This document shows, one piece after another, positions 60,389 to 63,994 of a stretch of 64,000 nucleotides of DNA (position 1 is the stretch's first letter; every line of letters begins with the position of its first letter). The DNA is from Escherichia phage AV112. The notes beneath the pieces are model-generated. The model searched no databases, was not told the DNA's origin, and saw only the letters and a program-made list of their open reading frames with translations. The DNA lies in the sequence record OR352942.1. The stretch is one strand, 5' to 3'. A program made the position numbers and the translations under genes.

Positions 60389-60937
60389 TTAACGAGCCCA
60401 TTTGATAATTTCTGTAATCAAATTATTACGTTCGCTTGCATTAAATCCTATAACTTTGTTAGCACCATCATGATTAAGTAATTGATACGTTTGGATTTTG
60501 TTATGAATTGCAAACTCTTCAAAATATGAAATGACTGTATTAAAACCGAATGAAGACAAAGTAATAAGGTCGTCTTCAAAACTTTCAGTCATTTCGTTAC
60601 GTGTTAAAATAATTGTGAACACATCATGGTTTTGGCAAAGACGAACATAATCCTGTTCATAAACGTCAAGAACCGAGTCCACATCTTGTCGAATACGTCC
60701 ATAAACCCAGTTACTAATATATCCACGGTCTAACAGATAAATCTTAGTAGGGTCTAAATAATTCAACATCGTTTCGAAACAGCCAACTTCATTTCGAGAT
60801 TTAACATCGAAACGTCCATCAACTGTTCGTTTAGGGAAATCAATCTTTACATATCTTTCACTAATTTCCATTATGTCATTAATGAAAGTTGTTTTACCAG
60901 CATTATCCGGGCCATCTACTAAAATAATTTTAGCCAT
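60389..60937 (-). CDS. P-loop nucleoside/nucleotide kinase (thymidylate-kinase-like)
   Basis: Walker A ILVDGPDNAGKTT; LLDRGYISNWVYG resembles TMK/dNK DRY-type motif; 182 aa. Confidence 0.55.
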   Translation of the reverse strand: MAKIILVDGPDNAGKTTFINDIMEISERYVKIDFPKRTVDGRFDVKSRNEVGCFETMLNYLDPTKIYLLDRGYISNWVYGRIRQDVDSVLDVYEQDYVRLCQNHDVFTIILTRNEMTESFEDDLITLSSFGFNTVISYFEEFAIHNKIQTYQLLNHDGANKVIGFNASERNNLITEIIKWAR

Positions 60938-60938
60938 T

Positions 60939-61838
60939 TTATTCCTCGATTACGACATCTTCATATTTAGGTATATTATACGGTGAAGAAATTAAAGCAT
61001 TAAAGTAGATGAACTCACCAAGACCTGGATGGAATACTTCTTCAGGATTTTCGAAATATTGAATCTTCGGTCTTCCTTTAAGAATTTGATAGTACTCAGT
61101 TTTAGTTGGTTTAAAAATTCGAATCAGTGCTTCTTCAGGATACTTATTTCTGTCGAAGCTACTATTTGGATCGGTTATATAAAGCGGTTGACCTAATTGA
61201 ATTGCACATTCAACCACTTGTTCAAAACGATAACACGGGTCACTAATTCGAAATGGATGAAAAATACCATCTAGATGAATAGGAGCCAAATCACCTACAA
61301 GACGCTGCATGATGGAAGGACGTATAACTTTCTGGGTTACGATAATCTTATTACCATCTGCACCTGCGTTAACCAGCACTTCTTTTTGACGTTCATTCAA
61401 CACAGTAGTTTGAAGTGAACGATTAACCGACAACATGTCGGTTTTTAAGAATTCGTCAATGTAAAAACGTGGTTTATTAGGGTCTGCAGTGATATTGAAA
61501 TTGAATTCTACATCAAAAGCGCCGTCATATCCAGTGATATCTGTGATTAGAAAATCACAATCATAATAAGCAATTAATGAATCAACCACAAATTCATTTT
61601 CAGACCAGAAATATTTACGAGTGTTATACGCGTTATCTTTATACCATAATGGAACAAACTTAAATTCTGGGAAAAGACGTTCGCATTCTTTAATATCAGA
61701 TGCATTACGTGGATATGTAATCACATCACCCGGATTAGCACGGTGCAAATGAAGTTGGAAGTTGCCATCCTTAAGGATAGCATACTGTCCAGTTTCATAA
61801 GACCGCATACTCAAGATAGGTACGCGGAAAATAGCCAT
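60939..61838 (-). CDS. hypothetical protein (299 aa), translationally coupled in 42-like operon
   Basis: start overlaps stop of 42-like gene by 1 nt; stop 1 nt from kinase start; no motif recognised. Confidence 0.5.
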   Translation of the reverse strand: MAIFRVPILSMRSYETGQYAILKDGNFQLHLHRANPGDVITYPRNASDIKECERLFPEFKFVPLWYKDNAYNTRKYFWSENEFVVDSLIAYYDCDFLITDITGYDGAFDVEFNFNITADPNKPRFYIDEFLKTDMLSVNRSLQTTVLNERQKEVLVNAGADGNKIIVTQKVIRPSIMQRLVGDLAPIHLDGIFHPFRISDPCYRFEQVVECAIQLGQPLYITDPNSSFDRNKYPEEALIRIFKPTKTEYYQILKGRPKIQYFENPEEVFHPGLGEFIYFNALISSPYNIPKYEDVVIEE

Positions 61839-62554
61839 TAGTCAAGAAATCCTTTAACATAATCAAAATCACGTTCAAACACATGGGCACTTACCATGGT
61901 ATGAGTATAATCACCAACTTCTACACCACATTCGTTAGCGATATAATGAAGTAATTTTCCTTGGAGATAAAAATCCAACTGCATAACAACAGCACAGTTC
62001 TGAGAACGCATATGACAGTGGGTATAAAGCTTACCATCACGAATATAATAAGTCACTGAGTCGGTACATGGATATTCAAGTGTTTCGTCTGAATCAAGCA
62101 AAGCCTGATCAGAACTTTCTAGAATTTGGAACACAACTCTTCGAGAGTTAGGTTTTTCTTTAAGTTCTTTTAGAAGAGTTGGTAACTGGGCCGCAATGCG
62201 AGGACCATAGAAAGTGTTGAAGTTCGCAGGCAAAGCATCTGATTTTGGTTTAGAAATAAATTTAGCGACGTTAGGATATGCCTTAAATGCTTCTTCTGCA
62301 TCAGTACCACCAGAAATCATAAATTTCCAGAAATCTTCAGCATATTCATAAGAGATGCGATTAATACGTGGGTCGGTCATTTTGAATGATGAAGGGGTAT
62401 CAACAACTACTGTCATAGACCCAATTTCATTACAACGTCCAATACGAGAATCAGTTACGAATTCCGGGTTTTCTAAAATTTCACGATTGACGGCTTTAAA
62501 TGCGGATTGAAAATCTGCGGCTTTAATATATTTCATTGTGTTATGTTTTCCCAT
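61838..62554 (-). CDS. 42: dCMP-hydroxymethylase-like enzyme (thymidylate synthase fold), divergent from T4 gp42
   Basis: TS-family core SRRVVFQ...YPCTDSVTYYIRDGKLYTHCHMRSQNCAVVMQLDF with catalytic Cys; Asp aligned with gp42 cytosine-specifying Asp. Confidence 0.6.
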   Translation of the reverse strand: MGKHNTMKYIKAADFQSAFKAVNREILENPEFVTDSRIGRCNEIGSMTVVVDTPSSFKMTDPRINRISYEYAEDFWKFMISGGTDAEEAFKAYPNVAKFISKPKSDALPANFNTFYGPRIAAQLPTLLKELKEKPNSRRVVFQILESSDQALLDSDETLEYPCTDSVTYYIRDGKLYTHCHMRSQNCAVVMQLDFYLQGKLLHYIANECGVEVGDYTHTMVSAHVFERDFDYVKGFLD

Positions 62555-62595: not shown

Positions 62596-62837
62596 TTATT
62601 TGAATTTCTTAGCGATGTTGATATAACGTAGAGCTTCGGCATCGATACTTCCAAGGACGCTATGAAGGAACGCGTCGACATAGTATTCTAGTTGAACATG
62701 TTCTCTTTAATCACTTTAGCCGCTTTAGTTTCAAACAGGCCCATAAGGGCCTTTTTAAGAATTTGTTCGTTGTTGTTAATTTTAATAGTCAAAATCTCTT
62801 CGTTAAGTTGGTGGTTAAAAGTTTTTCTAGAAATCAT
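62596..62837 (-). pseudogene. small ORF apparently interrupted by a frameshift (49 aa + 31-aa continuation in another frame)
   Basis: ATG 62837 overlaps stop of upstream gene; TAG at 62688; different frame reads on to TAA 62596 with no ATG. Confidence 0.3.
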
Positions 62838-63994
62838 TCTGGGTACCTCAAAGCGTCATCAGAGTTAGTTATATCAATAATAGATATAGAGTTTTCCGAT
62901 AACCCATTTTTAGATAACTGACGTTTATAATATCTTTCACAATATGTACACGTCGTCCCACAGATTTCATTAGCACAATCGAAATCTGGATGTTTGAACC
63001 ACCTTTTTTCTAAAAAGCCATCTAACAAAGAGGTTTCAATATTTACCGTATGTGAAAACTCAGTCTCATTTTCAAGAGTGAAAATGGTCTCTAAAGGCTT
63101 CCACAATTCCAACAAATTACCTTCAAATTTTTCAGAAGCATAAGCTTCAAGAACTTTCAAAATGTAGTCTGTGCTACCTGTACGTCCTGAAACTTTGAAT
63201 TGAGTGATACCAATATCATTATAAAGTTTCAAATCTTGAGGACGAACAAAACGAGTTCTCAACCAGTTAAATGGATCTGTATCACGAGCTTTAATACAGT
63301 GCTGCATTGGATATCCATTTAAGGATTTGGCATCATCTACTGTAACATCAGTGCTATGGAAAATATAGCAAGAGTCACGATAACTACAATGTGTTGTATA
63401 CCCTTTACCAGCATTAGAACAGAACTCATTTACAAGAACTTCAAATATTATATTGTTCTTATTACAAAACTCTGCTGCACGCTTCAGGAAAGAAACTGAA
63501 CGGTTCTTATGAATTCCACAGCAGACCTTTTTGATATTATATTGGTCATGCAAGTATTTGATTTGAGTTACAGCATCGACATGTAGAATTGTTGAAACTT
63601 CAATCTCAATGTCTTTATTGACTTCACGAACAATTTCCATAACAACAGGGTTAGCGATAGTAATACGCCAAACGCCTATTGACCAAAGATACTGAACATA
63701 ATCCTGAATAGCTTTCTTCTTCCACTCAACTAGTTCTCTTTTTGAACCAGGATTTATCGTGTTGAGTGTATAGTTAAAGCAAATACCTAATTCGTTACAA
63801 CGTTTAACGTAATCTTCTAACATCTTTTTGTCAACGTCAGGAAGCCTAAAATCAGGTCTGGCTGCTACAAAAGCCATTTCTCTTGTAGAGCCGTATACTT
63901 CGTTTATCAAGCTATTAGGATAAGTTTTATTGAGCTCTACGATTTTATCAAGAAGAGCTAAATCAAAATTCGTTCCGATTTTAAAGGTATTCAT
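62834..63994 (-). CDS. Cys-rich hypothetical protein (386 aa), possible Fe-S enzyme
   Basis: Cys clusters CCGIHK, EFCSNAGKGYTTHCSYRDSC, C-terminal CANEICGTTCTYC (contains C-x3-C-x-Y-C). Confidence 0.5.
   Translation of the reverse strand: MNTFKIGTNFDLALLDKIVELNKTYPNSLINEVYGSTREMAFVAARPDFRLPDVDKKMLEDYVKRCNELGICFNYTLNTINPGSKRELVEWKKKAIQDYVQYLWSIGVWRITIANPVVMEIVREVNKDIEIEVSTILHVDAVTQIKYLHDQYNIKKVCCGIHKNRSVSFLKRAAEFCNKNNIIFEVLVNEFCSNAGKGYTTHCSYRDSCYIFHSTDVTVDDAKSLNGYPMQHCIKARDTDPFNWLRTRFVRPQDLKLYNDIGITQFKVSGRTGSTDYILKVLEAYASEKFEGNLLELWKPLETIFTLENETEFSHTVNIETSLLDGFLEKRWFKHPDFDCANEICGTTCTYCERYYKRQLSKNGLSENSISIIDITNSDDALRYPE

Follow-up and report, generated by a model that had tools for sequence, protein, structure and literature searches.

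The DNA of phage RB69 contains arabinosylated 5-hydroxycytosine (5hoC), in which the sugar is ether-linked directly to C5 (Lee et al., NAR 2026, PMC13326640). The ThyA homologue gp48 makes 5-hydroxy-dCMP, apparently with flavin rather than folate, and an Asp-to-Asn replacement at E. coli position 169 is diagnostic of the 5-hydroxy-dCMP synthases (PMC13326640). In vitro, 5-hydroxy-dCMP is phosphorylated to the diphosphate by gp159, the RB69 homologue of gene 1, and gp48 and gp159 together suffice to put 5hoC into E. coli DNA (PMC13326640). The proposed first arabinosyltransferase is RB69 gp46:47. No activity of the individual glycosyltransferases was seen on 5hoC-containing DNA with either UDP-Araf or UDP-Arap, the third arabinose is added on DNA, and for the first arabinose both the mononucleotide and DNA are stated to remain possible acceptors (PMC13326640). 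In the Pootjesviridae, 5hoC is hexosylated, with a galactose/glucose modification (PMC13326640).

The steps of this 5-hydroxycytosine glycosylation were elucidated only in 2025-2026, and one conserved gene of the cluster, a kinase, stands outside the scheme. The gene, RB69p045 or DLP3_078, is listed as a 'nucleotide kinase' (PMC13326640, Table 1), a name that comes from fold matches only, and the pathway scheme gives it no step (PMC13326640). No enzymology of the kinase was found in the literature covered, and the paper on Shewanella phage Thanatos mentions no kinase. Among the phage P-loop kinases, M6 gp54 has been validated by experiment as a 5-hmdU DNA kinase (PMC8989533).

The kinase described here is encoded in a window of 64,000 nucleotides from Escherichia phage AV112 (OR352942.1), the whole stretch of DNA that was analysed. 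Its gene is already catalogued as the predicted nucleotide kinase of the 5hoC cluster and is not a discovery.

The kinase gene and its neighbours

The kinase ORF and the two genes upstream of it are arranged as follows.

61838..62554, minus strand: ThyA-superfamily 5-hydroxy-dCMP synthase, 238 aa, orthologue of RB69 gp48 (Pfam Thymidylat_synt, 1.9e-15, and signature residues)
60939..61838, minus strand: glycosyltransferase (GT1), 299 aa, orthologue of RB69 gp46:47 (PHROG 3891, E 1e-155)
60942..60947, minus strand: GAGGAA, Shine-Dalgarno-like, within the 3' end of the upstream glycosyltransferase gene, read from the sequence
60389..60937, minus strand: kinase ORF (thymidylate-kinase fold, YorR-like), 182 aa, ATG start

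The kinase ATG (60935-60937) lies 1 nt beyond the stop codon TAA (60939-60941) of the glycosyltransferase (GT), and this gap, together with the GAGGAA sequence, suggests that the two genes are translationally coupled. The synthase gene overlaps the start of the GT gene by 1 nt. Because of the gap, the GAGGAA in the end of the GT gene and this overlap, the synthase, GT and kinase genes look like a single translationally coupled unit. A scan for sigma-70 promoters and terminators between 60200 and 64000 gave sites no more numerous than chance, and no minus-strand terminator was found inside the synthase-GT-kinase block. The gene uvsX lies ~100 nt downstream of the kinase ORF. On the plus strand of 60389-60937, the ORF list contains no competing ORF of at least 40 aa.

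The preliminary description had assigned the kinase to the beta-gt slot and coupled it to a hydroxymethylase. The position is indeed that of T4 beta-gt, between the ThyA homologue in the gene 42 position and uvsX, but the kinase is not its sole occupant, as the slot is shared with the 299-aa GT. The coupling to a hydroxymethylase had to be abandoned. The ThyA homologue combines C146 with Asn at position 169 and Asp at position 177 (D169N/N177D); the neighbour is a 5-hydroxy-dCMP synthase, and the pathway is one of 5-hydroxycytosine arabinosylation. A U32-family protein is encoded upstream, and beyond the window edge are the genes of a phosphatase, a bifunctional kinase/uridylyltransferase and an arabinose-5-phosphate isomerase, leading to UDP-arabinofuranose.

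Escherichia phage AV113, an RB69-like Mosigvirus, matches the region at 100% identity; HX01, HY126 (98.9%), F2 and about 150 further genomes of Mosigvirus, the RB69-like T4 relatives, match it at 98%. The Afh genes of phage HY126 are reportedly named by He et al. 2026 (Nat Chem Biol). In public records the kinase ORF is called either 'hypothetical protein' or 'thymidylate kinase'. Its product is 98% identical to HX01 gp147 and other Mosigvirus copies and is the orthologue of RB69 ORF045 / HX01 gp147; one homologue is annotated RB69ORF045c, and DLP3 and Thanatos-2 are matched by members of the kinase family. Pairs of orthologues with unsaturated dS gave dN/dS values of 0.07-0.17, and the kinase is under purifying selection. 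The gene is real, as judged from these values, the 27 close homologues that were collected and its occurrence in 343 phage records (tblastn).

The canonical gene 1 kinase had been said to belong to a different family and to lie elsewhere, and this proved correct. When an approximate T4 gp1 query was searched against the window by tblastn, there was no homologue below E = 3. In the AV113 record, 146890-147624 is annotated as a deoxynucleoside monophosphate kinase; it lies about 55 kb from the kinase ORF and beside gene 3/57, flanked by genes for tail completion and tail-fibre assembly, and so occupies the canonical position of gene 1. A thymidine kinase (tk) is recorded at 128052-128633 in the same genome. 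The window kinase is an extra kinase, additional to the gene 1 dNMP kinase and tk.

Fold and family of the kinase

Scans of the single sequence against Pfam and NCBIfam gave only sub-threshold P-loop matches, and no classification was taken from them. The kinase scored 12.3 bits with PF02223 (cut-off 27) and 16.8 bits with TIGR00041 (cut-off 83.25). It was matched by PHROG 761 ('thymidylate kinase') at 7e-45. A profile search of 1.84 billion representatives returned 306 relatives at E <= 1e-3, with 45 at E <= 1e-10. When a family profile of 48 sequences was employed, YorR was found at E = 1.2e-9 and the thymidylate kinases (TMKs) of yeast, Aquifex, S. aureus, vaccinia, human and M. tuberculosis at 2e-8 to 2e-5; significant homology to TMKs appears only with the family profile and not with the single sequence. 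The RecA concatemers that topped the first profile search of the PDB were dismissed as an artefact of the six repeated P-loops in these engineered chains. The closest solved relatives of the kinase are ordinary TMKs and YorR.

An AlphaFold2 model based on a 21-sequence alignment had a pLDDT of 87 and a pTM of 0.84 and was weak only at residues 39-42 and 121-130, the latter with a mean pLDDT of about 65. Structural similarity to solved TMKs, with the alpha/beta fold of the NMP kinases, was observed. The assignment to the thymidylate-kinase fold holds. The NMP-kinase fold put forward in the preliminary description is thus supported, in that the family profile matches YorR and the TMKs and the motifs align, with the curated TMK thresholds not reached. 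Strict membership of the curated Tmk family does not hold, and the kinase belongs to a small phage-specific clade nearest to YorR of SPbeta. The motifs are located as follows.

60887..60913, minus strand: Walker A / P-loop, G9-P-D11-N-A-G14-K15-T16-T17, residues 9-17
60827..60838, minus strand: F34-P35-K36-R37, aligned with FPER of eukaryotic and poxvirus TMKs
60701..60730, minus strand: D70-R71-G72-Y73-I74-S75-N76-W-V-Y79 (LDRGYISNWVY, residues 69-79), counterpart of TMK DR(Y/H/F)xxSxxAY
60563..60601, minus strand: lid-like region, R113 (TRN) to F120-E-D122-D123-L-I125, from residue conservation and a low-confidence alignment to the S. aureus TMK lid

The Walker A sequence GPDNAGKTT and the DRG-Y-x-S segment are both in the 182-aa ORF, exactly as first described. 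GPDNAGKT aligns on the TMK P-loop, including the acidic residue at position 3, which in TMKs contacts the deoxyribose 3'-OH. HMM alignments to 1tmk, 5uiv and the vaccinia and human TMKs placed FPKR on the TMK FPER, and DRGYxSNxVY aligns on DRYxxSxxAY of the TMKs and YorR. One set of the TMK alignments was made with approximate TMK sequences and only corroborates the alignments to the PDB copies. Throughout the 48 family sequences G9, D11, G14, K15, D70, R71 and D122 are invariant, and K36, S75, N76, Y79, R113, D123 and N133 are conserved in at least 90%. The position after D70-R71 is Gly, Ser or Phe in the family, not Tyr or His.

The second half of the kinase diverges from the TMKs. In the lid region, R113 is the single conserved Arg, alongside a family-specific acidic pair, D122/D123 (FEDD). 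In close relatives, F43 and R48 are possible counterparts of the TMK Phe and Arg according to a low-confidence alignment, and R48 varies across the family. The thymine-binding Arg of the TMKs has no clearly conserved counterpart across the kinase family.

Linkage to the synthase across phages

The kinase was found by tblastn in 343 phage records and the synthase in 375. The numbers of kinase and synthase records, respectively, were 176 and 176 in Escherichia phages, 57 and 57 in Acinetobacter, 25 and 26 in Klebsiella, 15 and 15 in Shigella, 9 and 9 in both Enterobacter and Serratia, 7 and 7 in Proteus, and 6 and 6 in Yersinia. The surplus of the synthase over the kinase consists of 22 Rhizobium phages. 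The 60 kinase records listed are all from T4-like or unclassified T4-sized phages, and none of these 60 is a Tequatrovirus (T4-type).

The order synthase-GT-kinase-uvsX is kept in viral contigs with 44-99% kinase identity and also in Morganella phage Rgz1, Acinetobacter Ac42 and Pseudomonas PspYZU05. The cluster occurs in at least 10 T4-like genera, and the position of the kinase inside it varies; in Dhakavirus IME341, a Klebsiella phage and Proteus Pm5461 the kinase is elsewhere in the cluster, directly after an HAD phosphatase gene. The window kinase is both orthologous to RB69 ORF045 / DLP3_078 and located in the cluster of the D169N ThyA homologue and the first GT.

A related arrangement was found in Rhizobium phage AF3 (Pootjesviridae), where the order is a gp1-like kinase, a MazG-like protein, a D169N synthase, a GT and a divergent TMK-like kinase. 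The AF3 GT is in the same position as the window GT and 25% identical to it (E 2e-6), and the TMK-like kinase aligns with the family profile over 85 columns with a probability of 88%. In this Pootjesviridae homologue the Asp of the DR motif is replaced by Ala. No arabinose genes were present in the region of AF3 that was examined. Both the T4-like phages and the Pootjesviridae retain a gp1-type kinase plus a second kinase. Distant relatives of the kinase (E 1e-18 to 1e-9), in unrelated phage-like contigs, also adjoin D169N ThyA homologues. One of these contigs has, in addition, an FMN reductase, a SIS isomerase and a 624-aa protein, which is taken to be an AfhE-type bifunctional enzyme from its size and position.

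An intact kinase that is 52% identical and retains every motif is encoded between polymerase and uvsX in Morganella phage MP1, and no synthase, GT or U32 gene was found anywhere in its 163 kb genome. The congener of MP1, Rgz1, has the full cluster, and the kinases of the two phages are only 59% identical as compared with 93% for uvsX. The kinase is genetically linked to the synthase, with MP1 as the one clear exception. It belongs to a mobile 5-hydroxycytosine module comprising the 5-hydroxy-dCMP synthase, the first GT and the kinase.

Candidate substrates and comparison with known systems

The most likely of the roles considered, although it is advanced only tentatively, is that of a dNMP kinase whose substrate is 5-hydroxy-dCMP or a near derivative of it. 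The protein would be an active P-loop phosphotransferase of the thymidylate-kinase fold. The presumed substrate, 5-hydroxy-dCMP made by the adjacent synthase, would be converted by the kinase with ATP to the diphosphate, and the host NDP kinase would then provide 5-hydroxy-dCTP for the phage polymerase. In T4-like phages this step would overlap with that of the gene 1 dNMP kinase. The persistent association of the kinase with the synthase, including that in the distant contigs, is the classic signature of a next enzyme and argues for 5-hydroxy-dCMP as the substrate. By analogy with TMK structures, from which the roles of the residues were transferred, a nucleotide 5'-phosphate acceptor is favoured over a hydroxyl acceptor because of the TMK-type P-loop Asp, the basic FPKR and the DR motif. 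Moreover, dNKs use a carboxylate as general base where the kinase has a Lys/Arg pair, and the replacement of this carboxylate by the pair in FPKR likewise favours phosphate as the acceptor.

The possibility was considered that the protein is a sugar-phosphate kinase of the UDP-arabinose pathway. This was rejected, since AfhE/AfhF-type enzymes already cover that pathway and the kinase is kept in the AF3 cluster; AF3, with a different sugar, retains the synthase-GT-kinase order, which argues against a role in the sugar pathway. A role in UMP/UDP recycling was also discarded by reasoning that glycosyltransfer releases UDP, which the host NDP kinase recharges.

The main difficulty of a kinase for 5-hydroxy-dCMP is that it would be redundant with the gene 1 kinase, because RB69 gp159 already phosphorylates 5hodCMP in vitro and, with gp48, suffices to put the base into E. 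coli DNA. Further points against it are the MP1 copy in a genome lacking the pathway, the sub-threshold scores of the TMK models, the atypical lid and the unconserved thymine-binding Arg. Another candidate is a general kinase of pyrimidine (d)NMPs that takes dTMP, dCMP or dUMP, is loose in its C5 specificity and not dedicated to 5-hydroxycytosine, boosts nucleotide flux and merely hitch-hikes with the module. In its favour, MP1 keeps an intact copy in the absence of the 5hoC pathway, the divergence of the MP1 and Rgz1 kinases relative to uvsX suggests independent movement of the gene, the closest solved relatives are ordinary TMKs and YorR, and many public records carry the annotation 'thymidylate kinase'. 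Nevertheless, such a kinase is unlikely. It does not account for the near one-to-one match with the D169N synthase per genus across about 340 genomes, exactly equal in the Escherichia counts, or for the absence of Tequatrovirus among the 60 kinase records listed. In T4-like phages, dTMP is already served by gp1 and thymidine by tk, and the thymine-contacting Arg of the TMKs is not conserved across the family.

The retention of two kinases despite the activity of gp159 keeps alive a different proposal, in which GT1 adds arabinofuranose to 5-hydroxy-dCMP before replication and the kinase makes 5-O-arabinosyl-dCDP. The pocket of the kinase would have to be open at C5, gp1 would have to be unable to take the substrate and the polymerase would have to incorporate the glycosylated dCTP. 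This proposal explains the presence of a second kinase beside a gp1-type kinase in two phage families and the synthase-GT-kinase order shared by Straboviridae and Pootjesviridae despite their different sugars; it also fits the inactivity of single GTs on 5hoC DNA and the open level of the first arabinose (PMC13326640). It is nonetheless improbable, since the characterised phage DNA glycosylations, in T4 and for the third arabinose (PMC13326640), are all post-replicative, and expression of gp48 and gp159 alone is enough for 5hodCTP to be readily formed and incorporated (PMC13326640). Moreover, the negative in vitro GT result has many trivial causes, the kinase and GT1 are separated by other genes in several genera, and MP1 has the kinase without a GT. 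It is slightly less probable still that the kinase exists specifically for a bulky 5-O-furanosyl-dCMP that the gp1-type kinase cannot take, the first sugar being attached before replication; if true, this pathway would be the first for DNA in which glycosylation takes place at the nucleotide level, ahead of replication. Loss of catalysis was also weighed. The atypical lid, with few Arg and an acidic pair, and the Ala in place of the DR Asp in the Pootjesviridae homologue could indicate a P-loop protein with a regulatory or other non-catalytic role, such as that of an NTP-binding partner for GT1 or the dNTP-synthesis complex, or a decaying relic. This is very improbable in view of the invariance of the Walker A Lys/Thr, D70 and R71 in the 48 members, the dN/dS of 0.07-0.17 and the ORF being intact in 343 records.

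The preliminary description had also drawn an analogy with hmU-DNA kinases, and a kinase acting on the polymer, phosphorylating the 5-hydroxyl of 5hoC or a sugar hydroxyl so as to prime or regulate glycosylation, was considered on this basis. Distant relatives of the kinase are repeatedly fused to base-flipping domains of the DNA-glycosylase type (MBD4-like HhH-GPD and UDG), and a P-loop kinase and an enzyme of the HhH glycosylase fold are the two universal components of thymidine hypermodification (PMC5889632). The lack of activity of GT1 alone on 5hoC DNA (PMC13326640) is also consistent with a priming step. However, the analogy failed at the level of homology. An hhalign comparison of the family profile with M6 gp54 gave no similarity beyond 31 columns of the P-loop, hmmsearch gave 8.4 bits, again in the P-loop only, and M6 gp54 lacks the P-loop Asp, FPK and DR...SN..Y motifs. 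The fused HhH domain is MBD4-like (E 1e-9) with its catalytic Asp kept and showed no similarity to the aGPT-Pplase M6 gp51; a stand-alone MBD4-like homologue occurs in the 5-methylcytosine phage XP-12. Because the domain keeps the catalytic Asp, differs from M6 gp51 and occurs alone in XP-12, repair of deaminated modified cytosine would be the simpler reading of the fusion. A supposed kinase-ThyA fusion, P0154, was guessed from its C-terminal sequence and dropped when Pfam gave no confirmation. The neighbours of the kinase are a GT and a cytosine-specific (N177D) synthase, not an aGPT-Pplase and a dUMP hydroxymethylase. Furthermore, the window protein has no DNA-binding domain, and by analogy it has the TMK residues that would hold the nucleotide 3'-OH and 5'-phosphate. 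On chemical grounds (PMC13326640), no phosphate leaving group is required for an O-glycosidic bond in which the 5-oxygen is kept. Phosphorylation at the DNA level is accordingly a most improbable role for the kinase.

The original observation of the kinase is thus confirmed and its interpretation partly supported. What is new here are the matching record counts of the kinase and the D169N synthase in every T4-like genus tallied, the conserved synthase-GT-kinase order shared by two phage families, both of which carry a gp1-type kinase as well, the exceptional case of MP1 and the explicit exclusion of homology to 5-HMUDK. The substrate of the kinase would tell whether the first sugar joins the nucleotide or the DNA, and why phages with a broad dNMP kinase retain a second one. 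Should the kinase accept 5-hydroxy- or 5-glycosyl-dCMP, it would be a practical tool for the enzymatic synthesis of modified dNTPs; if it is merely a redundant dNMP kinase, the finding is an ordinary one.

As compared with Tmk, the window kinase lacks ~18 residues of the helix before the base-binding segment, and its lid has one conserved Arg and an invariant Asp pair whereas that of Tmk is Arg-rich. Its genomic partner is a dCMP-modifying rather than a dTMP-producing enzyme, and the thymine-binding Arg is not conserved. YorR of the B. subtilis prophage SPbeta (PDB 2axp / 3kb2) is not linked to the 5hoC pathway, and the C-terminal halves of the two proteins do not align. The likeness to 5-HMUDK, likewise a P-loop kinase from phages, lies in the size of about 185 aa and in the co-occurrence with a pyrimidine hydroxy(methyl)ase of the ThyA superfamily, and the HhH fusions of the distant relatives recall the pair of 5-HMUDK and aGPT-Pplase. 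However, only the P-loop aligns, no aGPT-Pplase is present and the O-glycoside chemistry does not call for a phosphate leaving group. T4 gp1 (PDB 1dek/1del), which phosphorylates a 5-substituted dCMP supplied by a ThyA homologue, is the likely functional analogue, although its family is another one, no similarity to it was detected in the window and AV113 has both kinases. The 'nucleotide kinase' RB69p045 / DLP3_078 is the counterpart from which the window kinase shows no substantive difference.

U32-family and chorismate mutase genes

The U32-family protein of the cluster, of which UbiU is a weak match, is encoded ahead of a small ORF in the window, and in Morganella phage Rgz1, as in Proteus phage Pm5461, the U32-family gene is followed by a type II chorismate mutase gene.

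Window 62834-63994, minus strand: U32-family protein (Pfam Peptidase_U32, 6e-11)
Window 62688-62837, minus strand: 49-aa ORF between the U32 and synthase genes
L034:6023-6400 and L035:10204-10590 (Rgz1 and Pm5461 loci): type II chorismate mutase gene (CM_2, E about 5e-12)

The 5hodCMP synthase gene lies directly after the chorismate mutase gene in both phages. The hydroxylated RNA bases ho5C and ho5U are products of the U32 enzymes RlhA and TrhP, which require prephenate (PMC5727448, PMC6599085). Given this requirement and the pairing of U32 and chorismate mutase genes, these phages may have a second route to 5-hydroxycytosine, which would be prephenate-dependent and possibly anaerobic. In the literature searched, no paper was found that connects the phage genes with prephenate-dependent 5-hydroxycytosine, and RB69p050 is named just 'sugar or heterocycle reductase' in PMC13326640.

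The 49-aa ORF occupies the position of the chorismate mutase gene in other genera; its HX01 counterpart, of 51 aa, is annotated as a hypothetical protein. The automated annotation of cluster genes was found to be misleading in HX01 (L001, NC_018855) and other RefSeq records.

Glycosyltransferase: 'RNA polymerase binding protein'
HAD phosphatase: 'phosphoheptose isomerase'
5hodCMP synthase: 'thymidylate synthase' or 'dCMP hydroxymethylase'
U32 protein: 'peptidase'

Kinase-glycosylase fusions

Fusion to DNA-glycosylase domains occurs in distant kinase-family members (proteins P0059, P0060, P0065, P0067 and P0069 at loci L029, L030 and L033; also P0139), and D169N ThyA homologues adjoin these fusions. 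One type carries an HhH-GPD domain that resembles MBD4 (E 1e-9) and retains the catalytic Asp, and another carries a UDG-superfamily domain. The MBD4-like domain also stands alone in Xanthomonas phage XP-12, the DNA of which is fully 5-methylcytosine, suggesting a phage glycosylase that repairs modified cytosine after deamination. The metagenomic phage contig L029, which also encodes a 394-aa D169N ThyA homologue, has a further gene directly after the fusion.

L029:9068-9613: FMN_red-family flavin reductase

This placement fits the reported reliance of 5hodCMP synthases on flavin (PMC13326640).

The kinase in MP1 and AF3

Morganella phage MP1 (vB_MmoM_MP1, NC_031020; L015 and L023-L026) retains an intact kinase gene, flanked by uvsX and the DNA polymerase gene. 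The whole 5hoC/arabinose cluster, present in its congener Rgz1, is absent from MP1 (NC_031020). The two kinases are only 59% identical, whereas the adjacent uvsX is 93% identical.

The family Pootjesviridae, represented by Rhizobium phage AF3, shares the order synthase, glycosyltransferase and kinase with the window.

AF3 locus L039 (MT778837, 123520-128689): gp1-like kinase, MazG-like protein, D169N synthase, glycosyltransferase and TMK-like kinase

The AF3 TMK-like kinase differs in having Ala in place of the DR-motif Asp.
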